NCBI GenBank assembly: GCA_024256285.1
Contig: JACGUG010000003.1
Location: 1 to 63,754 of the forward strand
Direction: 5' to 3'
Length of the DNA stretch: 63,754 nucleotides
Origin: an archaeon
GTDB lineage: Archaea > Thermoproteota > Nitrososphaeria > Nitrososphaerales > JACAEJ01
Part shown: positions 416 to 51,211 of the stretch, in pieces
How positions within the stretch are numbered: the stretch's first letter is position 1
Layout: every line of letters starts with the position of its first letter
Made by a program: the position numbers and the translations under genes
The notes under the pieces: model-generated
What the model saw: only the letters and a program-made list of their open reading frames with translations
The model's database searches: none
What the model was told of the DNA's origin: nothing

Positions 416-2011
416 ATGTTCGAGATAAGGACGACCGACCTAGCAGGCAGGATAGGAAAGATAAGGACCAAGAGCGGTCTGCTGGAGACGCCTTGCATCT
501 TGCCTGTAATTCACCCCGTAAGGCAGAGCTTAGCACCTAAAGAAATGGCAAGAATCGGTTTCAAAGCAGTGATGACGAACGCTTACATAACTTTGAAAAC
601 GTTTGGGAAAGTAGCAGAAGAAAAGGGGATACACAAGATCATCGATTACGACGGAATAATCATGACTGACTCAGGGGGTTATCAGATGCTGAAGTATGGA
701 GATGTAGAGGTCACACCTTTGGAGATGGCTAGCTTTCAAGAAAAGATCGGTTCTGACATGGCTATTGTGCTGGATACACCTACTGGGACTGATGTAGATA
801 GAAGGCGAGCTAGTGAAACTGTTGAGATTACATTAAGGGCTGCAGAAGAGACATTAAAAGCAGTCAAGGCTGAAGGGACGCTCTGGACCGGTCCTATTCA
901 AGGTGGTAGCCATCTGGACCTTTTGAAGATGTCTGCAGAGAGAACTGGGAAGATGGCATTCGATATCTTCGCTCTTGGAAGCCCGACAGAAGTCATGGAA
1001 TCTTACAACTTCAATTTATTGGTTCAGATGATAATTACAGTCAAGCAGGTTCTTCCAATAGATAAGCCCCTACATCTATTTGGCGCTGGACACCCATTGA
1101 CGATCCCTCTTGTTATAGCACTCGGTTGTGATCTTTTCGATTCGGCATCCTATATGTTATACGCTAGAGAAGGTCGCTACATGACAGAATACGGCACTGC
1201 AAGGTTGGATGAACTTACATATCTACCATGTAACTGTTCGATCTGTTCAACACACACATTAAAAGAAATCAAGGAGGCGGGGGTTGAAGAGAGAACTCAG
1301 AAGATAGCCATCCACAATTTGAACGTTCTCTTAAAGGAAGTGAGGGCAACAAAACAAGCTATAGAGGATGGGAGAATCTGGGAGTATCTGGGCACGAAGG
1401 CAAGAGCTCACCCAAAACTCTGGGAAGCTTTTAAGTCGTTGAGTAATCATTACGAATTTCTAGAGGACGGGACTCCATTGTTTAAACCAAGGGCAATCTT
1501 CTTTTATGAGCCTCACGATTTGATGAGACCTGAAGTCTTAAGATACCATAAAAGACTCATAGAAGATGTATCTGTAAAGAAAAAGACGCTCTTGCTCCTT
1601 CCAGAATCTGATGTCAAGCCTTTCTATAAATCACCATCTTATATTAAATTGATCGAAGCTCTTGGCGATGGATTGGAGAAAGTTCAAGTATGCTTTTTAT
1701 CGCCTCCCTTTGGAGTAGTGCCCGTGGAACTCTCCGATGTCTACCCCCTATCACAATACTTGAGCTCCATCGAACCAGATTACGATGTTATGAAAGAAGT
1801 GCTAAAACGTTCAAAAGAATTTATAAGAAAAAACTCCTTTAGGAAGATCCTCCTTCTAAATCACTTGGATGCTTACAGCCCTCTATTCAAAATGATGGCC
1901 AGCTCGCTAGAGAACTGCTACATAATCGATGCCCTTGGCGATACCAACCGTAGCTTGGATAGAGCCTTCAATAAAATCTCCCATATCATAGACATAGAAG
2001 CTCGGTGTTAG
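416..2011 (+). CDS. tgtA: Archaeosine tRNA-guanine(15) transglycosylase
   Basis: TDSGGYQ, GPIQGG, HLFGAGHP and DLFDSASY motifs, CxCxxC...H zinc site; no recognisable PUA domain. Confidence 0.95.
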   Translation: MFEIRTTDLAGRIGKIRTKSGLLETPCILPVIHPVRQSLAPKEMARIGFKAVMTNAYITLKTFGKVAEEKGIHKIIDYDGIIMTDSGGYQMLKYGDVEVTPLEMASFQEKIGSDMAIVLDTPTGTDVDRRRASETVEITLRAAEETLKAVKAEGTLWTGPIQGGSHLDLLKMSAERTGKMAFDIFALGSPTEVMESYNFNLLVQMIITVKQVLPIDKPLHLFGAGHPLTIPLVIALGCDLFDSASYMLYAREGRYMTEYGTARLDELTYLPCNCSICSTHTLKEIKEAGVEERTQKIAIHNLNVLLKEVRATKQAIEDGRIWEYLGTKARAHPKLWEAFKSLSNHYEFLEDGTPLFKPRAIFFYEPHDLMRPEVLRYHKRLIEDVSVKKKTLLLLPESDVKPFYKSPSYIKLIEALGDGLEKVQVCFLSPPFGVVPVELSDVYPLSQYLSSIEPDYDVMKEVLKRSKEFIRKNSFRKILLLNHLDAYSPLFKMMASSLENCYIIDALGDTNRSLDRAFNKISHIIDIEARC

Positions 2012-2706
2012 GTGTAGATCGATTCGCCACCCCTCTTATTTACTGCCTCCTGCCTAGCAACCTCTAATTCAAGGGCTTCTGCCCCCTTGATCAAAGGTGT
2101 TGTATCAACTTCAAATTTGTAATATCTTGAAAGCACAGATATTGCTTCAGCAGTAGCCCTAGGATCGACCCTTTTTGTAGAAGCATATGCCAAGGTCGCA
2201 AAGGCAGGGAAACCTGTAACTTCAAAGTAGTTCAGCATGATAGCAAGGGGGCCGACTATTAGATGGTCATCCTCCAAGATGATTCCCTTGGCCAACTCGT
2301 CCCTAGGTATGAAGGAATGTGTATGAACGATTCTGAATGTAGTCTCATCTGTTCTTAGGGAGGAGTCCAAGCCGCCAATGAGGGCCACCTCCTTAAAGCC
2401 TGCTTCAGTGACCCATTTTGCGAAGCTTCTGAAGAACCCTGTCTCTTTATTTCTGTAGGGTGGAACTTCGACCTTAAAGAAGGCAAGATCTCCTTCCCTG
2501 AATATCTCGTAAGGAGTGACCAGTCTGCCTGAAGCAGTTGTAGTTGCTGGGGGGATTATTTCAGAATCTACAAATGCAACTCTCTTAGCGTTCAGCTTCT
2601 GGATCAAGTATTTTACAGTCCAGTACCCTGTACCCCCTATCCCATGGAAACCTGTTATCAAAGAGCAACCATCAAAACGTATGTCACGTGGGATTACTGT
2701 TATCAT
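2008..2706 (-). CDS. PAC2-family proteasome assembly chaperone
   Basis: ITGFHGIGGTG N-terminus, IGGL, GPLAIML, DPRATA; 232 aa. Confidence 0.88.
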   Translation of the reverse strand: MITVIPRDIRFDGCSLITGFHGIGGTGYWTVKYLIQKLNAKRVAFVDSEIIPPATTTASGRLVTPYEIFREGDLAFFKVEVPPYRNKETGFFRSFAKWVTEAGFKEVALIGGLDSSLRTDETTFRIVHTHSFIPRDELAKGIILEDDHLIVGPLAIMLNYFEVTGFPAFATLAYASTKRVDPRATAEAISVLSRYYKFEVDTTPLIKGAEALELEVARQEAVNKRGGESIYT

Positions 2707-2748
2707 GGTATAAATTTAAGTAGCACTTATTCAAAAATTTGTCTCTCC

Positions 2749-4008
2749 ATGAAAATAACGATCTTAGGCGGTGCAAGAGAAGTAGGAAGATCCGCTTTTT
2801 TAGTCGAGAATAGCGAAGGAAGAGCCCTGTTGGATTTTGGGGTGCAACTCACGAAACCACCAGCATTCCCAATGCATATCCAACCAAGGGAGGTAGATTC
2901 TATCCTTCTTTCACATGCTCATCTCGATCATAGTGGTGGAATCCCTCTCTTCTTCATATCTGGGGGTACGAAGCTATATACTATAGGGCTGACTTTAGAG
3001 TTAGCTCAACTCCTTATAGAGGACTTTTTGAGGATTTCTGGTTTCTACCTTCCTTTTGAGTACATAGACCTACTATCTATGGTTAATGGGACTCGTAGAG
3101 TAGATCTAAATGAACCAGTCGAAATAAAAGGATTCACGGCTACTTTCTTGAATTCTGGGCATCTCCCTGGTGGAGCATCCATCCTATTGACGAGTAAAAG
3201 TAAAAGGCTCCTCTATACGGGAGATATCAGTGCACATGGTTCGGCACTGCTTAGAGGTGCGGATACGAACTTTGGGGAATTGGATGCAGTAATAACTGAG
3301 AGTACCTATGCAACGACCGACCATCTACCACGTGAGGATGTAGAGAGGGAGTTTATAGAGTTTGCAAAAGAGGTCGTAGAACGGGGGGGTACTCTTTTTG
3401 TCCCAGCCTTCTCTGTGGGTAGGTCTCAGGAGATAGCATGTGTGTTCAAAAAGTATAACTTCCCATATTCAGTGGCTATGGACGGCATGGCTTTAAAGAC
3501 CAATGAGATCCTGTTCAGATACCCAGAATATCTGAGGGATCCAAAACTGTTCCGTGAAAGCATTGGAAACATCGAGCTGATAAGGGGCTGGAGGCAGAGG
3601 AGACGTATCGTTAAGACGCCGTCGGTCATAATATCTCCTGCAGGCATGCTGGTGGGAGGCGCCGCTGTCTTTTATAATGCCGAAGTTTCAAAAAGATCGA
3701 AAAATGCTATAGCCCTCGTCTCGTATCAGATGCCTGAGACGCCAGGAAGGATTTTGCTGGAAAAGAAGATAACGATCATAAATGGCAAGCCTAAAAAGGT
3801 CAAGGCTGAAGTGCGCCATTTCGACTTCTCATCTCACAGCGGTAGAAAGGAGCTCTTTGATATGTTCAGAAGGATTGAGGGAAACCCAAAGGTTTACACG
3901 GTGCATGGCGAGGAGAAGAACTGCATTCAGTTTGCTGAGGAGTTGAAAACCGAGTTGGGGTTAGATGCTGTAGTACCTAAAACTGGCGACGCCTACTCAT
4001 TAAAATAA
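2749..4008 (+). CDS. MBL-fold beta-CASP ribonuclease (aCPSF2-like)
   Basis: LGGAREVGRS, HAHLDH, GHLPG, ESTY, FSSHS and VHGE motifs. Start moved to the ATG at 2749 because the longer track ORF overlaps the PAC2 gene. Confidence 0.92.
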   Translation: MKITILGGAREVGRSAFLVENSEGRALLDFGVQLTKPPAFPMHIQPREVDSILLSHAHLDHSGGIPLFFISGGTKLYTIGLTLELAQLLIEDFLRISGFYLPFEYIDLLSMVNGTRRVDLNEPVEIKGFTATFLNSGHLPGGASILLTSKSKRLLYTGDISAHGSALLRGADTNFGELDAVITESTYATTDHLPREDVEREFIEFAKEVVERGGTLFVPAFSVGRSQEIACVFKKYNFPYSVAMDGMALKTNEILFRYPEYLRDPKLFRESIGNIELIRGWRQRRRIVKTPSVIISPAGMLVGGAAVFYNAEVSKRSKNAIALVSYQMPETPGRILLEKKITIINGKPKKVKAEVRHFDFSSHSGRKELFDMFRRIEGNPKVYTVHGEEKNCIQFAEELKTELGLDAVVPKTGDAYSLK

Positions 4009-43874: not shown

Positions 43875-44693
43875 TTGGATGTCTTTGAGATAATCTCTGT
43901 TGGAAACGAACTTCTTAATGGAAAGACTCTGAACACCAATGCCCATTGGCTTGCGAAGGCTATAACCGAGTTAGGAGGTTTCGTCAGGCGTTGCACAGTG
44001 ATCAGAGACGATGTAGAAGAGATATCCTCTGCAGTCAGAGAATCCATGGAGAGGGGGGTAGATTGGTTGATCGTATCGGGCGGTCTGGGACCCACTTACG
44101 ACGACAAGACCCTTCAAGGTCTGGCAAAAGCCCTACATCGAGAATTGATCTTGGATGAAGATGCCTTGAAGATGGTAAAAAAGAAGTATGAAGAGATCGT
44201 CGGCCATGGTCTGCTGAAAAGGGTTGAGCTTACACCAGCAAGGATGAAGATGGCTACTCTGCCAAAGGGCTCAAAACCTCTTCCAAATCCCTTAGGTACA
44301 GCTCCCGGAGTTCTATTGAAAGAAGGTAGAATGAATATCCTCTGCCTTCCCGGAGTTCCAGCAGAGATGAAGAGCATATTCAAAGAGAGCATCTCACCCA
44401 TCATAGAAGAAAGGAGAAAAGGTTTCTACCATGAGAAGAGTGTTCACATAACTGGGATAGTTGAATCGGAGTTGGCACCCCTCATAGAAGAAGTCTTGAA
44501 GAGCCATCCATCAGTGTACGTAAAATCACACCCAAAGGGTCGAAAAGAGGGGGTCTCTAAGATCGAGATTCAAGTAACCACGACAGCAGATGATCCTTCT
44601 ACCGCTCTGAGAAGGGTCGAGGTTGCACTGGAGCAGCTGACTTCCATTATAATCGATCAGGGCGGGATGGTCGACGAGGAGAGGATGACATGA
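43875..44693 (+). CDS. CinA N-terminal (MocF-like) protein, nucleotide pyrophosphatase family
   Basis: VGNELLNG...NTNAHWLA, GGLGPTYDDKT, LPGVPAEM; no PncC domain. Confidence 0.85.
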   Translation: MDVFEIISVGNELLNGKTLNTNAHWLAKAITELGGFVRRCTVIRDDVEEISSAVRESMERGVDWLIVSGGLGPTYDDKTLQGLAKALHRELILDEDALKMVKKKYEEIVGHGLLKRVELTPARMKMATLPKGSKPLPNPLGTAPGVLLKEGRMNILCLPGVPAEMKSIFKESISPIIEERRKGFYHEKSVHITGIVESELAPLIEEVLKSHPSVYVKSHPKGRKEGVSKIEIQVTTTADDPSTALRRVEVALEQLTSIIIDQGGMVDEERMT

Positions 44694-44717: not shown

Positions 44718-45155
44718 ATGTCAAGGGAGTATCCAGAGTATCCTATGGTAGGTGTAGGAGCACTGATCAAGAAAGATGGTTCGGTCCTTTTGGTTAAAAG
44801 AGAGCACGAGCCGGGCAAAGGCAGATGGTCTCTGCCGGGGGGTCTTGTAAACCTAGGCGAAACTATGATGGAGGCAGTAAAGCGAGAGGTCGAGGAAGAG
44901 GTAGGGCTCAAGGTGAAGGTAGTCGGTCTTATAGATGTATTTGACAGTATTGTGTACGATGATGAAGGCAGGGTGCGCTTCCACTATGTGATCATAGGCT
45001 TCGAGGTGAGTCTCATAGGAGGAGAGGTCAGAGGGAGCGAAGAGGCTTCCCAAGTCGATTGGTTCAAGGCTGAAGAGTTGAGGGGCTTGAAGATGACCAG
45101 TACTACGAAAAAGCTACTGAAAGATTACCTTCTGATGGATCGAGACGATCAGTAG
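44718..45155 (+). CDS. NUDIX hydrolase (ADP-ribose pyrophosphatase-like)
   Basis: YPEYPMVGVG, GGLVNLGETMMEAVKREVEEEVG Nudix box, RFHYVI. Confidence 0.9.
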   Translation: MSREYPEYPMVGVGALIKKDGSVLLVKREHEPGKGRWSLPGGLVNLGETMMEAVKREVEEEVGLKVKVVGLIDVFDSIVYDDEGRVRFHYVIIGFEVSLIGGEVRGSEEASQVDWFKAEELRGLKMTSTTKKLLKDYLLMDRDDQ

Positions 45156-45230
45156 TTTATGTAAATATTAGAAAATTGTATTTACACATCTTTGGGTAGT
45201 TTTAAATTTAAGGGATGGGTTCATCGGTTC

Positions 45231-45776
45231 ATGGCAGATTCAAGACTTGGAAAGGGGCTTGTTCACATAATAACTGGAAAGGGTAGGGGCAAGACTACAT
45301 CGGCTCTTGGGTTGGCCCTTAGGGCTACTGGTCATGGCCTAAAGGTCTGTATGATCCAGTTCATGAAGAGCAGATGGGAAGGGGAGAGGTATGGTGAGAT
45401 CAACGCTGTTAGGAAGATTCAAAATTTCAAGATAGTTCAGTTCGGCAGTGAAAAGCTCGTATCACACTATACACCTACTGAGATGGACTTCAAGCGCGCC
45501 AAGAAGGGGCTGGAGTACGCAAAAAAGACCATCAAGGGCAATGAGTGTGATCTGGTGATCTTAGATGAGATATGGGTAGCTGTTCATCATAAACTGATCA
45601 ATCTATCAGAAGTCATAAGCCTTATCAAGAACAAGGCCGAGCATGTGGAACTGGTACTGACAGGAAGGTATGCCCCAAAAGAAGCTTATGAATACGCAGA
45701 TTACGTCTCAGAGATCAAGAAGGTCAAGCACCCTTACTCAAAGGGTCAGAAGGCAAGATTGGGCATAGAGTTCTGA
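45231..45776 (+). CDS. cobO: Cob(I)alamin adenosyltransferase
   Basis: GKGRGKTTSALG, IQFMK, ILDEI, LVLTGR, KHPY..G...R.GIEF. Start placed at MADSRL. Confidence 0.93.
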   Translation: MADSRLGKGLVHIITGKGRGKTTSALGLALRATGHGLKVCMIQFMKSRWEGERYGEINAVRKIQNFKIVQFGSEKLVSHYTPTEMDFKRAKKGLEYAKKTIKGNECDLVILDEIWVAVHHKLINLSEVISLIKNKAEHVELVLTGRYAPKEAYEYADYVSEIKKVKHPYSKGQKARLGIEF

Positions 45777-45788
45777 TGTATAGGTGAA

Positions 45789-46721
45789 TTAAAGAACCTT
45801 GCCGATGATCGTTATAGGCTTTCTAACAGTCCATGCCAGTCTTTCGATCTTTGCTTCATCCATGGTGACCAAGACTGCCGTGGCTGGACCTGCAGGCTTC
45901 TCCAAGTCCATTTTAACATCATCATAAAACTTAACCTGCCGCCCAACCATCTGTGTTATCATCCTTGCTTCGTAGGCTATGCCTTGAGTATCGACTGGAA
46001 TTACATCGTGGACAAATTCTAGTTGGAGCAACCTAAGGACTTCTTGAAGGTCTGCTATCTTTCCCTCCCTCTCGGCTTGAAGGACTTCCTCCCCAACCTT
46101 TGGAGTGCCTATTATGACAAGGGCATCGTTGGGCTGAGTCCTCCCTATTCTCAGCTCATCTTCATGAACGAGCCCCAAAGCCATCGCCCCCAGCCCTGTC
46201 TGATCAGTGCTTACGTTCTCCTCTGTATTCACGCTTATGGACTCTTCTGGATCGAGTCCTATCTTCTTTGCCTCACTCTTTACGCCTTTCAGTATCTCTA
46301 TGCCTGTAGGGGCCATCTCAACGCTCAATGTAACTACGATCAGCCTTGGCCATGAATTTATCGCTATAGTATCCATGAGGACTACCCTGGTCATGAAGCG
46401 GCCCAGTGTAAAACCATCAACCTTGACCTTGTCCATAGGTTTCGGGCCTATGCCACCAGAGGATGTATAGCTCAAGGTCAAGATCAAGCCTGTCGGTAGC
46501 TTCATTAGGGTTACATCTCCCCTCTTCATCAAGACTACCTGTGAAGGTGTTACCCTGAAGATTGTTGGACGTACTATGCTACCTATGTTCTTCAGCATAG
46601 TCAAGTAGAAGGTCAAAGCTTGTCGGATGACTTCCGATCTACTTAGATCATACTCTTTGGCAAACTCATCGAGGTCTCTTACTATCTTCTCTGGAAGTCG
46701 GACATTTATAGGGCCACTCAA
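45789..46721 (-). CDS. CopG-type RHH domain fused to a CblS (alpha-ribazole kinase)-like PurM-fold domain
   Basis: INVRLPEKIVRDLDEFAKEYDLSRSEVIRQAL, then GGIGPK..DKVKV, GRFMTRV, VEMAPTG, TEEN..TDQTG, GTPKVGEEV, KPAGPAT. Confidence 0.75.
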   Translation of the reverse strand: MSGPINVRLPEKIVRDLDEFAKEYDLSRSEVIRQALTFYLTMLKNIGSIVRPTIFRVTPSQVVLMKRGDVTLMKLPTGLILTLSYTSSGGIGPKPMDKVKVDGFTLGRFMTRVVLMDTIAINSWPRLIVVTLSVEMAPTGIEILKGVKSEAKKIGLDPEESISVNTEENVSTDQTGLGAMALGLVHEDELRIGRTQPNDALVIIGTPKVGEEVLQAEREGKIADLQEVLRLLQLEFVHDVIPVDTQGIAYEARMITQMVGRQVKFYDDVKMDLEKPAGPATAVLVTMDEAKIERLAWTVRKPITIIGKVL

Positions 46722-46786
46722 TTTTGTACAACCTATTATAAGTTAACTCCTTATAACCCTCTTGGTCTATAAGTGAGAGAGGGAGA

Positions 46787-47809
46787 ATGGCTTTAGACTA
46801 TGAATCGATGCTCTTAAGGTCTGTTGGATGCTTGGCAGGCGTAGCCATCGGGGATTCTATGGGGATGCCTACCTCTGGGTTCTCGCCAGAACAGATACGT
46901 GAAAAGTTTGGCAAGGTAGTAAGTTTTTTGGATGCACCTAAAGGGCATCTAGTCCATGATGGATTGAAGGCTGGGCAGGTTACCGATGATACCCAGATAA
47001 CACTTGTCTTGGCAGATGCGATAATAAAGGATGGGTTTGTATCATCGGAAGGTTTTGCAAGGCGATTATGGGAGTGGAGTGTTAAATCGGGTGCTTCTAT
47101 AAAGAGATTTTTAGGACCCAGCACGAGGGGAGCCTTGGAGAAGGTGGCGAAAGGAAATAAGATTCAGGATGTCTCTGGATTGGGGGCCACAGATGGTGCG
47201 GCCATGAGAGTTTCTCCAGTAGGAATAGTCGATGCAGGCCTCGATCTAAAAGAAGTTGTAGAAGATGTGGCGAAGTCTTGTGCCTTTACTCACAACACCG
47301 ATGTGGCCATCTCTGCAGCCTCAGCTGTAGCATGTTCGATCTCTAAGGCAGTTGTGGGAGATTGTAGTGTTGATGATATCATCGAGGCTGGAATGAAGGG
47401 TGCGAGGCTTGGTGCCCAGTTTGGAAGTCTGTATCCGGCTGCTCCAGTAGATAAGAGAATAGAGCTGGCTATGAATCTGGTCTCTCATGCCAAGAGCCTT
47501 GAAGAGGTCATAGACTCCCTCTACAACTATGTCGGTGCTGGGATTGGGTCTAACGAAGCCGTGCCAACCGCCTTCGGGGTCTTTGCTGCTACTGATGGAG
47601 AGCCTATGGATGCCATAATAATGGCGACAAACATAGGAGGGGATGCAGACACCATAGCATCCATAGCAGGCGGGATTGCAGGGGCATTTAAAGGGATCGA
47701 GGCTTTCCCAAAGGAGATGGTAGAGAAGGTTGTGAAGGTCAATGAGCTGAACTTCTATGAAGTTGTGAGGAGGCTCTTGGAAGTGAGGCAGAAGAGGTTG
47801 ATGAAGTGA
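46787..47809 (+). CDS. ADP-ribosylglycohydrolase family protein
   Basis: GDSMG, VTDDTQ, DGAAMRVSP, GGDADTIASIAG. Confidence 0.93.
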   Translation: MALDYESMLLRSVGCLAGVAIGDSMGMPTSGFSPEQIREKFGKVVSFLDAPKGHLVHDGLKAGQVTDDTQITLVLADAIIKDGFVSSEGFARRLWEWSVKSGASIKRFLGPSTRGALEKVAKGNKIQDVSGLGATDGAAMRVSPVGIVDAGLDLKEVVEDVAKSCAFTHNTDVAISAASAVACSISKAVVGDCSVDDIIEAGMKGARLGAQFGSLYPAAPVDKRIELAMNLVSHAKSLEEVIDSLYNYVGAGIGSNEAVPTAFGVFAATDGEPMDAIIMATNIGGDADTIASIAGGIAGAFKGIEAFPKEMVEKVVKVNELNFYEVVRRLLEVRQKRLMK

Positions 47810-48783
47810 TCGATGTAATAGCCTTTGGAGATATAGTCTTAGACCTGATCGTACCGATAGAGGGTCTTCCGATAAAGGATGAAGATGTTCAGATAGCGAA
47901 GTACATCAGAAGAGAGGCTGGTGGCGTATGTAACTTCCTCATAACTGCCTCAAGGCTGGGTCTCAAAGTTGGCATCGTAGGCTGTGTTGGAGACGACGAA
48001 GATGGTAGATTCGTTAGAGAGTTATTGAGGAGGGAGGGGGTGGACGTGACGGGCATAGATGAAATAGAGGGGGAAGGGACAGCAAAGGTTCTTGTCTTAG
48101 TGGATAGAGAGGGAAGGCATGCCTTCATAGGTGTGCATGGGATCGGTGTGGAGGTCTGCCAAGATCGTATCGATGTCGAAAGGATAGAGTCTTCTAGAGC
48201 CATCTACACATCGGGGCACACCCTGATCCGATCGCCGAGCCTTGATATTACCCTTGAAGTGATGAGGAAGGCTAAAGGCTCGGGCATCCCGGTCTTCTTC
48301 GATCCAGGTCCTTTGGTGAATGAAGTTCAGCCTAAAGTCTTAGATTCTGCCTTAGAAAGTACAGAGGTTCTCATGCCAAATATAATTGAAGCAGAGGCCT
48401 TGACAGGGACCCACGACTTAAAGATGGCCTCAGAGACCCTTTTAAAGAAGGGACCAGAGACGGTCGTGATAAAATTGGGTCAAGGGGGTTGCTTCATAGC
48501 TCGAGAAGGTTCATCGATTCATGTACCGAGCTTCAAAGTGCCTGTAATAGATACCACAGGGGCTGGAGATTCTTTCAATGCAGCCTACGTCTATGGATAC
48601 TTAAGGCAACTTCCTATAAATTATATCGGGATATTAGCCAACGCTGTTGGAGGGATGATGGTTACCAAGTTGGGGGGAGGCACTCAAGCCCCATCAAAGA
48701 AAGAACTGGTAGACTTTCTAAAGGGGAAAGCCAATACCGATATCGAAGAATTGCTCTCATATTTAGAGGTGAGAGAGATTTAA
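47806..48783 (+). CDS. PfkB/ribokinase-family sugar kinase
   Basis: AGG..CN, VGDDEDG, FFDPGP, PNIIE, DTTGAGDSF. Confidence 0.93.
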   Translation: MIDVIAFGDIVLDLIVPIEGLPIKDEDVQIAKYIRREAGGVCNFLITASRLGLKVGIVGCVGDDEDGRFVRELLRREGVDVTGIDEIEGEGTAKVLVLVDREGRHAFIGVHGIGVEVCQDRIDVERIESSRAIYTSGHTLIRSPSLDITLEVMRKAKGSGIPVFFDPGPLVNEVQPKVLDSALESTEVLMPNIIEAEALTGTHDLKMASETLLKKGPETVVIKLGQGGCFIAREGSSIHVPSFKVPVIDTTGAGDSFNAAYVYGYLRQLPINYIGILANAVGGMMVTKLGGGTQAPSKKELVDFLKGKANTDIEELLSYLEVREI

Positions 48784-48794
48784 TTTAATTTAAT

Positions 48795-50171
48795 TTAGGT
48801 GACTATCTTTTCGAGTTTTCTTAACCTCAGAGCCCTTTTTATCTCCAAAGCGATCCTATCCCCCATGCTCATCCTCCTGTTGTACTTCGCATTTGCGTAC
48901 TGAGAGCCTACTCCCATGTGCACATTCGTGCCCCCACCATGCCTTGTTGCAACATCTTGAGTTACAGGGATATGAGCATAGACATCTTCACCACTGGGAA
49001 CATCGTAAAGTCCATACTCTACAGCCTTGCCCGGAACCTTGCCCCAAGTTATCAAAGTCTGAAGGCACCAGGCTCCGATTATCCCTGGGGGTTCGTATCT
49101 TTTGGTTGCCAAGAGGAAGGCATTGGCACACCTATGAATATCCTTCAGTAAAGACTCTCTCAGGCTCATGGCAAGATGGCATGTAACCTCAAAGGACGGG
49201 ACCTGCTTGATCTTCTGTTGCACATCTATCGGTAGCCTCTTCAACCCGTCGAAGATCGTCTCCCTCCTCTCATCTATGGAGAGAAACTCGTTGGCCAGGC
49301 AGACTCTTGCTTCACCCAGATTCATATCATGAAGTTCAGCGTAGAGATCGTCCACATCCCCCCATTCCTCCTCTGCATTCAGGGGTGAAAGGAAGAAGTT
49401 GAAGTTGGCATGAGGGCCCAAGACTATCTGCTCTATCCTAGCCCTCCTTAAGCCATCTTCATTCAAGTTGCCATGCTCCACCTCTACTACAACTTTATCT
49501 TCAAGGTCGTTCGAGTCGGTAGCGAAGATGAACTCCCTCTCAAGCTCCCTCTTTGCATGTTCAGATTTTAAGAGTAGAGGCTCATCTACATACTCCTTGA
49601 GCCTTATTCCCTTCGGATAGACTTCAAACTCGTAGGATTTCGGGTGGGGTATGCCCGCTTTATCACAGAACCAGTAGTAGTCCCTCTCTACTTCTCCCCT
49701 GTTCTCTATCTTCAAAAGTCTTCTTGAGCCTAAGATCGGTATCGAGAACTCCTTCTCTATTCTGCTACAGTGATCGTCGCCGCCCAGATAGACAGAGAAG
49801 GCTCTATTCGGTATCTGGAGACATTCTAGATCCCTCAACTCATCCATGTACTTGAATATCTCTGGGTATTCGTCCAAGATTATCAGGGCTGTCTCCCAAC
49901 CACCCTTCTTTTTCAAGTCCTTTGGATCGAAGACGCAGACCATATCCTCTCTGGTTTGTTTGGGCAGGTCTTCTATCTCCTCCTCAACCTTGCCCACTAT
50001 AGGATTCTGTAGATAGATTATCGCCCTTTTTTTCGTCGTGTAGATTATCCTCTTCAGCCCATAGTCCCTAGCGCCCGATGCAGCATCGAGGGCAGAGTGA
50101 GAACCCAGTATAAGGGCTATAGGCTCCTTGTACTCTTTGACTACTTCTTGCATCTCTTCTCTTTCGATCAT
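48795..50171 (-). CDS. purP: PurP-like formate-dependent ATP-grasp ligase (DUF1246/DUF1297)
   Basis: GSHSALD, PNRAF, GSRRLLKIE, ESLL, GIIGAWCLQ, RHGGGTN, SMGDRIALEI. Confidence 0.8.
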   Translation of the reverse strand: MIEREEMQEVVKEYKEPIALILGSHSALDAASGARDYGLKRIIYTTKKRAIIYLQNPIVGKVEEEIEDLPKQTREDMVCVFDPKDLKKKGGWETALIILDEYPEIFKYMDELRDLECLQIPNRAFSVYLGGDDHCSRIEKEFSIPILGSRRLLKIENRGEVERDYYWFCDKAGIPHPKSYEFEVYPKGIRLKEYVDEPLLLKSEHAKRELEREFIFATDSNDLEDKVVVEVEHGNLNEDGLRRARIEQIVLGPHANFNFFLSPLNAEEEWGDVDDLYAELHDMNLGEARVCLANEFLSIDERRETIFDGLKRLPIDVQQKIKQVPSFEVTCHLAMSLRESLLKDIHRCANAFLLATKRYEPPGIIGAWCLQTLITWGKVPGKAVEYGLYDVPSGEDVYAHIPVTQDVATRHGGGTNVHMGVGSQYANAKYNRRMSMGDRIALEIKRALRLRKLEKIVT

Positions 50172-51211
50172 ACACGAACGCCCCTCACTATTATTCCAGG
50201 CTCTCCAACAACCTTGCCTATAGTCTTTGCGCCCATGCCATGCTCTTTAAATATCTTTACGATCTCATCCACCTCGTCTTTTGGTGCACACAGACAGAAC
50301 CCTATCCCCATATTAAAGGTTCGATACATCTCCCTTTTAGCCACAGAGCCTTCCCTTTGGATAAATTGGAATATAGGCAAAGGCTCGGGCATATAATCGA
50401 GCAAGAAACCCGTCTTCGGCTTTAAGAGCAATCTTGCAAGCTTCGAAAAGGCCCCGCCAGTTATGTGGGCCATGCCATGCACTTCACATCTCTTAAGCAC
50501 TTCAAGGACTGGTCTGACGTAGATTCCTGTGGGCATCAATAATTCCTCTCCAAGGCTCTTCCCAAGCTCGGGTATGAACTGATGGACTTCATACTTCGGC
50601 AGTAAAGCTTTCCTTGCAAGAGACAGGCCATTAGAGTGGATCCCCGTGCTTTCGACGCCAACTACGATATCTCCGATCTCCAAGTCCCTCCCAGTGATCA
50701 CCTTATCCTTATCTACAACGCCGATGGCCAAGCCTACGAGGTCGAAGCCCTTCCCATCGATCCCTTTTATCACATCTGGCATTATGGCCGTCTCCCCGCC
50801 AACGATCGATACACAAGCCTCCTCTGCACCCCTTGCAAGACCTTTCATGATCTCCTTCACCATCTTTTTATTGGGCTTCTCAAGAGCCAGATAATCGACA
50901 AGGGCCATAGGCTCAGAGCCCACGCAGATCAGGTCGTTGACGTTCATGGCCACACAGTCTATGCCTACCGTATCGTACTTCTCCATCATCTGGGCTACAA
51001 GCACCTTTGTTCCTACACCGTCAGAATGAACTGTTAGAGCCCTATCACCCATGTCTATGATGCCTGCGTAATGGCCTATCTCGATGAGGGGACTACCGAG
51101 CTTCCCTTGCCTATATCTGAAAGTACCGCTGAGTTGCTTTAAGACCTCTTTTCGAATCTTGCTTACTTCGTCTAAGTCTACGCCAGCTTTGGCGTACGTG
51201 AGCTTTTTCAT
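50168..51211 (-). CDS. purM: Phosphoribosylformylglycinamidine cyclo-ligase
   Basis: YAKAGVD, DGVGTK, GGETA, STGIHSNG, HITGG, TFNMGIG. Confidence 0.96.
   Translation of the reverse strand: MKKLTYAKAGVDLDEVSKIRKEVLKQLSGTFRYRQGKLGSPLIEIGHYAGIIDMGDRALTVHSDGVGTKVLVAQMMEKYDTVGIDCVAMNVNDLICVGSEPMALVDYLALEKPNKKMVKEIMKGLARGAEEACVSIVGGETAIMPDVIKGIDGKGFDLVGLAIGVVDKDKVITGRDLEIGDIVVGVESTGIHSNGLSLARKALLPKYEVHQFIPELGKSLGEELLMPTGIYVRPVLEVLKRCEVHGMAHITGGAFSKLARLLLKPKTGFLLDYMPEPLPIFQFIQREGSVAKREMYRTFNMGIGFCLCAPKDEVDEIVKIFKEHGMGAKTIGKVVGEPGIIVRGVRV

Follow-up and report, generated by a model that had tools for sequence, protein, structure and literature searches.

A ribbon-helix-helix domain fused to a CblS-derived domain: a candidate regulator of cobamide lower-ligand supply in Thermoproteota

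CblS is the alpha-ribazole kinase of Listeria innocua and Geobacillus kaustophilus, where it is accompanied by the transporter CblT. In Bacillota, a cobalamin riboswitch (RF00174) controls cblT-cblS and cob genes (as at locus L126). To our knowledge, archaea lack B12 riboswitches, and the control of cobamide synthesis and salvage in these organisms is largely uncharted. Two archaeal regulators of other vitamin pathways offer a precedent for protein-based control. ThiR consists of a DNA-binding domain and a ThiN-like thiamine phosphate synthase domain without catalysis. RbkR joins a helix-turn-helix to a riboflavin kinase (PMC8305020). Here we describe a protein of related design, encoded in a stretch of 63,754 nucleotides (the whole of which is referred to hereafter as the window; assembly GCA_024256285.1, contig JACGUG010000003.1) from an archaeon of the lineage Thermoproteota, Nitrososphaeria, Nitrososphaerales, JACAEJ01. 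Its gene (45789-46721, minus strand) codes for an N-terminal ribbon-helix-helix (RHH) domain followed by a domain related to CblS. We conclude that the protein is probably a one-component transcription factor for lower-ligand supply, in which a duplicated CblS serves as the sensor of an RHH regulator.

As in ThiR and RbkR, a DNA-binding domain is joined to a homologue of a pathway enzyme, which would act as the sensor, and in several lineages a palindrome precedes genes belonging to that pathway, in hosts that lack the corresponding riboswitch. The present system differs from these two in having an RHH where they have a winged helix-turn-helix, in its PurM-like fold, in acting on the cobamide lower-ligand pathway and in being known from sequence alone. 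NikR likewise has an N-terminal RHH, an oligomerising C-terminal domain that binds a small molecule, and a palindromic operator of two half-sites, but its C-domain is ACT-like and binds nickel rather than having a PurM fold, and its operator and regulon are unrelated. The C-domain of the fused proteins resembles CblS in identity (30-45%), PurM-type fold and length, and in other archaea it has the same kind of partner, a CblT-type energy-coupling factor (ECF) S component. The fused proteins differ from CblS in carrying the N-terminal RHH, in the replacement of an Asp and a Ser and, in most cases, of the Lys of the GSKGI motif, in forming a separate clade and in their predicted role, which is sensing and not catalysis. 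The cobalamin riboswitch controls the same type of gene, but it is an RNA that senses the finished corrinoid, whereas the archaeal protein probably senses a lower-ligand riboside or its phosphate. The principle of an enzyme paralogue acting as vitamin-pathway sensor in archaea without riboswitches is already known from ThiR and RbkR, and the combination of RHH and sensor from NikR; the family, the operator and the regulon appear to be new. No description of the RHH plus CblS-like architecture was found in full-text searches of the literature linking CblS or alpha-ribazole to archaeal regulators, RHH domains or AIR synthases. In databases the homologues are labelled 'ribbon-helix-helix domain-containing protein', 'CopG family transcriptional regulator' or 'selenophosphate synthetase-related protein'.

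Domain structure and CblS ancestry

In the list of open reading frames (ORFs), the regulator gene has a TTG start and a stop codon at 45789-45791, and encodes 310 amino acids. The start codon is sound, since the aligned homologues open at the same position with M-x-x-I-N-V-R-L-P. Residues 5-40 (46602-46709, minus strand), which include the beta-strand motif I-N-V-R-L-P, matched Pfam RHH_1 (PF01402) with 34.8 bits (E=1.4e-8; cut-off 20.5). R8 was invariant, and N6 and V7 nearly so, across the Nitrososphaerales-like and Bathyarchaeia members of the alignment. In a model made with AlphaFold2 (AF2), the RHH helices were formed at 11-23 and 28-44; the strand I5-L9 was not, as expected for a monomer.

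The C-domain of the window protein (residues ~62-310; 45792-46538, minus strand) gave no significant match when searched alone against Pfam, NCBIfam and PDB sequences, and the Pfam AIRS N-domain scored 13 bits on the window protein, against a cut-off of 24 (E=0.14). Many of its homologues carry PF00586, and the family profile matched PurM (0.0086) and ThiL (0.046) weakly among PDB sequences. A usable structural model needed an alignment of 133 sequences, with which the mean predicted local distance difference test (pLDDT) score was 95.2; with only 15 close homologues the pLDDT was 44. Foldseek on this model returned HypE, ThiL, PurM, SelD and PurL, with E values of 2e-13 to 1e-10 and probability 1.0. 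The predicted structure thereby confirmed the C-domain as a PurM fold.

Within this fold the C-domain is closest to CblS. It is 45% identical to the archaeal standalone CblS that adjoins cblT, and 30-42% identical to the standalone family (E 1e-55 to 1e-25). An exhaustive HMMER search yielded 475 cluster representatives, 349 of them at E<=1e-10. Except for a handful of ~305-aa RHH-fused proteins, these were standalone proteins of ~240-260 aa, with the consensus aCDSxGGIGxK ... LME ... tGSTEEN ... QTG ... VGSKGI ... SAGPAT. The standalone family occupied 486 loci in named genomes and, among 80 listed, nearly all were named Bacillota; the published distribution of CblS matches this (PMC6461909). 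Several database sources name standalone members 'alpha-ribazole kinase'. In Proteiniclasticum ruminis a cobalamin riboswitch is followed by cbiA, an ECF-S gene, the standalone CblS-family gene, cobU, cobS and cobQ, and Tissierella has the same pair of S-component and kinase genes. A cobalamin riboswitch lay within 3 kb of the standalone gene at only one of 20 Bacillota loci, the other Bacillota cblS genes being probably deep inside long operons. Intact CblS also occurs in natural fusions, once behind an N-terminal precorrin-2 dehydrogenase/SirC-like Rossmann domain (P0246, 475 aa) and once with an ECF-type ABC ATPase (P0253, 488 aa). A published L. coryniformis cblS primer, used as a scan query, gave no match. 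Because of the distribution, the database names, the cob-operon context and the natural fusions, the standalone ~250-aa family is, on sequence grounds, CblS.

The architecture of ~310 aa with RHH and CblS-like domain was found in 461 homologues, from Nitrososphaerales-like metagenome-assembled genomes and Bathyarchaeia; the top homologue, 94% identical to the window protein, is named Ca. Methylarchaceae. The regulator gene was present in nine of ten sampled genomes of the window's family and in 25 of 401 genomes of the phylum.

At the family motifs the window protein reads YTSSGGIGPK, LMD, VNTEEN and DTQGI, and thus departs from the CblS consensus. The Asp of the first motif (position 86), present in 122 of 126 standalone proteins, was absent from all 13 fused ones (Thr in eight, Ser in four, Ile in one); in the window it is T86 (codon 46464-46466, minus strand). 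Position 165 was Ser in 130/134 standalone proteins and in 0/12 fused proteins (Asn 6, His 5, Asp 1; N165 in the window, codon 46227-46229, minus strand). Glu at position 117 (128/130 standalone) was kept in one fused protein, five having Asp, as does the window (D117), and five Lys. The G-S-K of GSKGI, well conserved in standalone members (G 132/133, S 129/133, K or R in 99), was mostly altered in the fused proteins, and is replaced by D244-T245-Q246 in the window protein. D97, E167, Q174 and T175 were kept in every fused member that covers them, K94 in 12 of 13 and G247 in 10 of 11. With hhalign, the Asp of CDS aligned to the Asp of the PurM SDGVGTK motif, and the Glu/Asp117 position to the N-D of PurM. 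Acidic residues at these positions bind Mg-ATP in enzymes of the PurM superfamily.

When the catalytic domains were placed in a tree, the fused members grouped as one clade (10/10, support 0.88), sister to a standalone clade with a GSSEKN/STEKN motif like that of the archaeal CblS at L001. The simplest history compatible with these sequences would be one duplication and one fusion, followed by the loss of two catalytic-site residues with retention of the pocket. A preliminary description of the window, made from its letters, had proposed an RHH N-terminus joined to a CblS-like PurM-fold domain that had lost the first Asp and altered its motifs. This was borne out by the RHH_1 score above cut-off, by the model and its Foldseek matches (~1e-13), by the similarity to the alpha-ribazole kinase family (E down to 1e-55) and by the complete replacement of both the Asp and the Ser in the fused members. 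The motifs given there for CblS (CDSxGxIG, GSTEEN, GSKGI) proved to be those of the standalone consensus.

An 18-bp palindrome and the genes it precedes

Upstream of the regulator gene we found an 18-bp palindrome, GTAWTAC-N4-GTAWTAC (consensus GTATTACAATTGTAATAC). Allowing up to three mismatches and a distance of up to 150 nt from the gene, it was present at 12 of 16 loci, against 1.8% of windows drawn at random from these loci. The loci span regulator proteins that are only 42-55% identical. The palindrome consists of two self-symmetric 7-bp half-sites, 11 bp apart, and its conservation fits that of the DNA-reading strand N6-V7-R8. The four loci without it were those of the window and of three close relatives, which lack cblT; within the window's clade, the palindrome occurred only where cblT is present (L003 and L004). 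We propose that the palindrome is the operator of the family, as predicted from this conservation and placement.

At six Bathyarchaeia loci for which ORF maps were drawn, the regulator gene is head-to-head with an operon of cblT and an intact standalone cblS, whose product is 46% identical to the adjoining fused paralogue. The adjacent S components are 33-40% identical to bacterial CblT. In the 401-genome sample, both copies of the CblS homologue were ~600 bp apart in five genomes. The regulator gene adjoins cblT at L003 and L004 and also at L001, L039, L041-L043 and L050-L052, loci from Bathyarchaeia and other Thermoproteota families. At L003 and L004, tightly packed cblT-ecfAA'-ecfT-ARH-PfkB genes are head-to-head with the regulator gene, and the palindrome lies upstream of the operon. 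Its fourth gene (L003:1824-2846), of the ADP-ribosylglycohydrolase (ARH) family, encodes an orthologue 71% identical to the window ARH, and its last gene is orthologous to the window PfkB gene. In cblT operons (L003, L039) the palindrome is 11-12 bp upstream of a TATA-like box; in Bathyarchaeia it is just downstream of the TATA box of the regulator gene. A PfkB gene also stands beside cblT and the regulator gene in two genomes, G344 (L051, contig C22) and G172 (L052, contig C115), which have CobS and neither CobT nor standalone CblS. This PfkB is a candidate for a non-orthologous alpha-ribazole kinase.

The palindrome was also found away from the regulator gene, before cobT. Among genomes of the window's family, all seven that were readable across the region (the window's own, G000, and G402, G403, G404 and G406-G408) had a palindrome module before cobT or SSF-cobT. 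In G403, G404, G406 and G407 the module, upstream of SSF-cobT, consists of the palindrome, ~11 nt and CTTATATGG; in G402 (perfect palindrome, 71 nt) and G408 it immediately precedes cobT. In the window's genome the corresponding operon is on another contig (C52, locus L176), with genes for a zinc-dependent alcohol dehydrogenase (Zn-ADH)-like protein (164069-165130), a TrpD paralogue (165142-166263), an SSF symporter (166394-167833) and CobT (167830-168954). The start of cobT overlaps the stop of the SSF gene, and its product scored 391 bits on TIGR00303 against a cut-off of 240. Near-duplicate promoter modules (palindrome, ~11 nt, CTTATATGGTTGGAT) precede both the ADH and the SSF genes: the palindrome before ADH-trpD2 (C52:163965-163982) differs from the strict consensus at one position and fits the W-degenerate pattern exactly, and that before SSF-cobT (ACGCTACAATTGTAGTAC, C52:166325-166342) is 51 nt from the gene pair. 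The second TrpD homologue of this genome is on contig C57.

An ADH gene followed by a trpD paralogue was present in two of 17 genomes searched, that of the window and that of the distant Bathyarchaeon G190 (contig C54). Both have the palindrome upstream with no more than one mismatch, the copy in G190 being perfect. In five Bathyarchaeia genomes (G300, G318, G077, G336 and G312; L140-L144), the palindrome lies 70-90 nt upstream of an orthologous gene for a 195-aa multi-pass membrane protein, which had no match in Pfam or NCBIfam and no detectable similarity to CblT. In the three of these genomes that belong to g55, the next gene encodes a conserved protein of ~185 aa, whose central part is rich in Pro and Ala and of low complexity. 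A new transporter within the regulon is one possible identity of the 195-aa protein.

A position weight matrix (PWM) built from 26 sites, both C52 sites being in the training set, ranked these two first in the window's genome; real sites scored 17.8-28.2 bits. The next-best matches in this genome were at C81:3248 (15.4 bits) and C52:44793 (14.2 bits). A reversed control pattern gave ~6 matches in 15 genomes at one mismatch. Palindrome matches at C87:8275, in G344:C15 (inside an ORF) and in G412 (a genome without the regulator) were set aside as probable chance matches.

In the window, the regulator gene is flanked by cobO/cobA, for an ATP:cob(I)alamin adenosyltransferase (45192-45776, plus strand; PF02572, 1e-60; TIGR00708, 175.5 bits against a cut-off of 168), with which it converges across 12 bp, and by a divergent pair. 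The latter comprises an ARH gene (46787-47809, plus strand; PF03747, 7e-64) and a gene for a PfkB-family, ribokinase-like kinase (47806-48783, plus strand; PF00294, 2e-50), whose first 4 bp overlap the end of ARH; in an NCBIfam search this PfkB was below all equivalog cut-offs. Tail-to-tail cobO was common to all six related loci (L003, L004, L135-L138). At L135, whose regulator is the 94% identical one, ARH-PfkB occurs without the transporter, as in the window; at L136 and L138, only ARH is beside the regulator gene. At L137, genes of HNH and RNase_H type and small ORFs (1733-3051) stand where ARH would be, which suggests insertion or replacement by a mobile element. No CblT was found in the window or, by tblastn, in the genome, which is 95% complete; standalone CblS was likewise not found in this genome, which has an archaeal CobT. 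The window ARH has probably survived from an ancestral cblT-ecfAA'-ecfT-ARH-PfkB operon. Most likely, the window's lineage lost the cblT-ecf genes by deletion, together with the operator next to them, so that ARH-PfkB came to adjoin the regulator gene. Enzymes of the ARH family cleave alpha-linked ribosyl bonds, and it is conceivable that this one acts on alpha-ribazole or on the alpha-adenine dinucleotide of 5,6-dimethylbenzimidazole (alpha-DMB adenine dinucleotide).

Proposed function and alternative explanations

We propose that the RHH domain binds DNA at GTAWTAC-N4-GTAWTAC, and that the C-domain is a duplicated alpha-ribazole kinase which has kept most of its pocket and lost the Asp and the Ser. 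Given these losses and the retained pocket, it would most likely bind alpha-ribazole or its 5'-phosphate without turnover; the descent of the pocket from an alpha-ribazole kinase makes these two the most likely ligands. Alpha-ribazole-5'-phosphate is made by both CobT and CblS, and a regulator that sensed it could exert feedback on the two routes alike. Dimerisation is the rule for PurM-fold domains, and RHH dimers recognise short, symmetric half-sites. By analogy with NikR, Arc and MetJ, the 11-bp spacing of the half-sites suggests a tetramer or a dimer of dimers, in which two RHH dimers would occupy the two half-sites, held together by the dimeric PurM-fold domain. The putative targets, cblT-cblS, cblT-ecfAA'T-ARH-PfkB, (SSF-)cobT and the pair of ADH and trpD paralogue, would have in common the supply of alpha-ribazole phosphate. 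Just upstream of the TFB recognition element (BRE) and TATA box, the bound protein could either block TFB or recruit it. The position of the palindrome downstream of the regulator's own TATA box in Bathyarchaeia implies autoregulation, and suggests autorepression. In the window's genome, the operators that remain would be those on C52, before ADH-trpD2 and SSF-cobT.

Several observations weigh against this interpretation, and some of them favour a protein that is at once a kinase for alpha-ribazole, or a related riboside, and a DNA-binding regulator, like BirA, NadR and RbkR. Only two conserved family residues are lost; K94, D97, E167, N169, T175, G247 and the AGPA motif of the pocket are kept, and the acidic D117 still fills the second PurM-type metal position of the window protein, so that residual or altered catalysis may persist, as judged from these residues. 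Moreover, the fused protein is the sole CblS homologue in at least eight Bathyarchaeia genomes. G344 and G172, which need a source of alpha-ribazole phosphate, have CobS and lack both CobT and standalone CblS, and the fused protein could be their kinase. However, no fused member retains D86 or S165, and this holds for G344 and G172 too, where the PfkB beside cblT could supply the activity instead. The window's genome has CobT, and an intact CblS, where present, is encoded beside the regulator gene, as is usual for an enzyme and its sensor paralogue. We consider a bifunctional protein unlikely. The remaining points against concern the regulon and the family. The tie to the characterised CblS of Listeria and Geobacillus rests on database names, gene context and motifs. 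There was no palindrome within 1.5 kb of cobT in 13 Bathyarchaeia genomes, and therefore the regulon differs between the clades. The position upstream of BRE/TATA is compatible with activation as well as repression. Finally, the operator was not found beside the regulator gene in the window or its three close relatives, and regulation is not directly evident from the window locus itself. It could also be supposed that the ligand and regulon are not specific to cobamides, and that the B12 links are in part synteny. An ADP-ribose derivative, aminoimidazole riboside or NaMN, from NAD or purine salvage, would then be sensed, as the neighbouring ARH, PfkB, NUDIX, CinA-like, PurP-like and PurM genes might suggest; the ADH, trpD paralogue, SSF transporter and 195-aa membrane protein of the regulon would fit such a ligand. 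We regard this as very unlikely, as the sensor comes from the CblS family, whose bacterial members are in cob operons, the targets with assigned functions are cblT, cblS and cobT, and cobO is the invariant tail-to-tail neighbour in the window's clade.

A third possibility, along the lines of the preliminary description, is that the protein binds within the 65-bp gap between its own gene and ARH (46722-46786), repressing both itself and ARH-PfkB. The elements on which this was based exist: TTATAAG (46736-46742) and CTTATAA (46750-46756) are separated by 7 nt, with AGTTAACT at 46741-46748, and they overlap both likely promoters. In relatives, moreover, ARH-PfkB belongs to a cblT operon that the palindrome would control. 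The inverted repeat is only marginally non-random, however, as a perfect 7-bp repeat with a spacer of up to 12 occurred in ~5% of 65-bp shuffles and in 3.9% of 65-nt tiles of the window, and each arm adds a single base to TTATAA, a self-complementary hexamer resembling a TATA box. The centre of the repeat is AGTTAAC in the window and ATAGGTC in the 94%-identical relative L135, and the element is unlike the family operator even though the NVR of the DNA-reading strand is conserved. A third TATA-like box, CTATAAG (46767-46773), is nearer the ARH start, which is preceded by a Shine-Dalgarno-like GAGAGGGAGA; the segment ACCAAGAGGGTTATAAGG is shared throughout the clade and resembles the BRE/TATA of the regulator gene. 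No match to the operator consensus was found in the gap with up to three mismatches; the best PWM score in 45700-46900 was -0.9 bits, and nothing in the window reached 12 bits. From its sequence, the repeat is best read as two crossing divergent promoters and not as an operator, and we think local repression through it improbable. The preliminary description was therefore right about the convergence on cobO with a 12-bp gap, the divergence from ARH-PfkB and the presence of the repeat, and an operator at the repeat and direct control of ARH-PfkB in the window's genome were not supported. Its broader suggestions fared better. A role in lower-ligand supply is indicated by the head-to-head cblT-cblS or cblT-ecf-ARH-PfkB operons and by the palindromes that link the family to cblT, cobT and other operons, and, in keeping with a protein-based alternative to riboswitches, no cobalamin riboswitch (RF00174) was found in the window's genome.

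If it is indeed a sensor derived from CblS that controls lower-ligand supply, the RHH-fused protein would be a clear case of a duplicated enzyme turned sensor of the regulator of its own pathway. It would also give a handle on archaeal cobamide control, with a defined protein, an 18-bp operator at fixed spacing from TATA, and a small regulon centred on alpha-ribazole phosphate. This regulon nominates PfkB, ARH, the trpD paralogue with ADH, and two transporters for lower-ligand salvage or remodelling in uncultured Thermoproteota, lineages that matter to B12 exchange in sediments and hot springs. We suggest tentatively that the protein may be the first member of a family of archaeal transcription factors that sense alpha-ribazole or its phosphate and govern cobamide lower-ligand supply in Thermoproteota, as B12 riboswitches do for cblTS in Bacillota, and that its regulon may mark undescribed lower-ligand enzymes and transporters. 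Were this true, it would suggest a PfkB-type alpha-ribazole kinase replacing CblS, an ARH-family enzyme acting on alpha-N-ribosides, and the participation of the Zn-ADH and TrpD-paralogue pair, an SSF-type transporter and the 195-aa membrane protein in lower-ligand supply.

Neighbouring genes

In nine genomes of the Bathyarchaeia family f15 (L039-L054), genes for a PPAT-like cytidylyltransferase, a GHMP pantoate-kinase-like kinase and a 249-aa ECF S component are convergent on the regulator gene. This cluster looks like one for CoA-precursor salvage; considered as part of the system, it was judged to reflect lineage synteny and not the regulon.

Just upstream of cobO in the window are genes for a CinA-like protein (MoCF_biosynth, 43875-44693) and a NUDIX hydrolase (44718-45155). 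The pair is near cobO and the regulator gene in all relatives (L003, L135-L138), and may be linked to NAD or ADP-ribose-type intermediates. On the other side, adjoining PfkB, the window has a PurP-like gene, PurM and then a SAICAR synthase gene (48795-51211). The PurP-like protein (DUF1246/DUF1297) has 458 aa, longer than the NCBIfam PurP models, and was matched in four stretches; the same gene order is found at L135 and L136.

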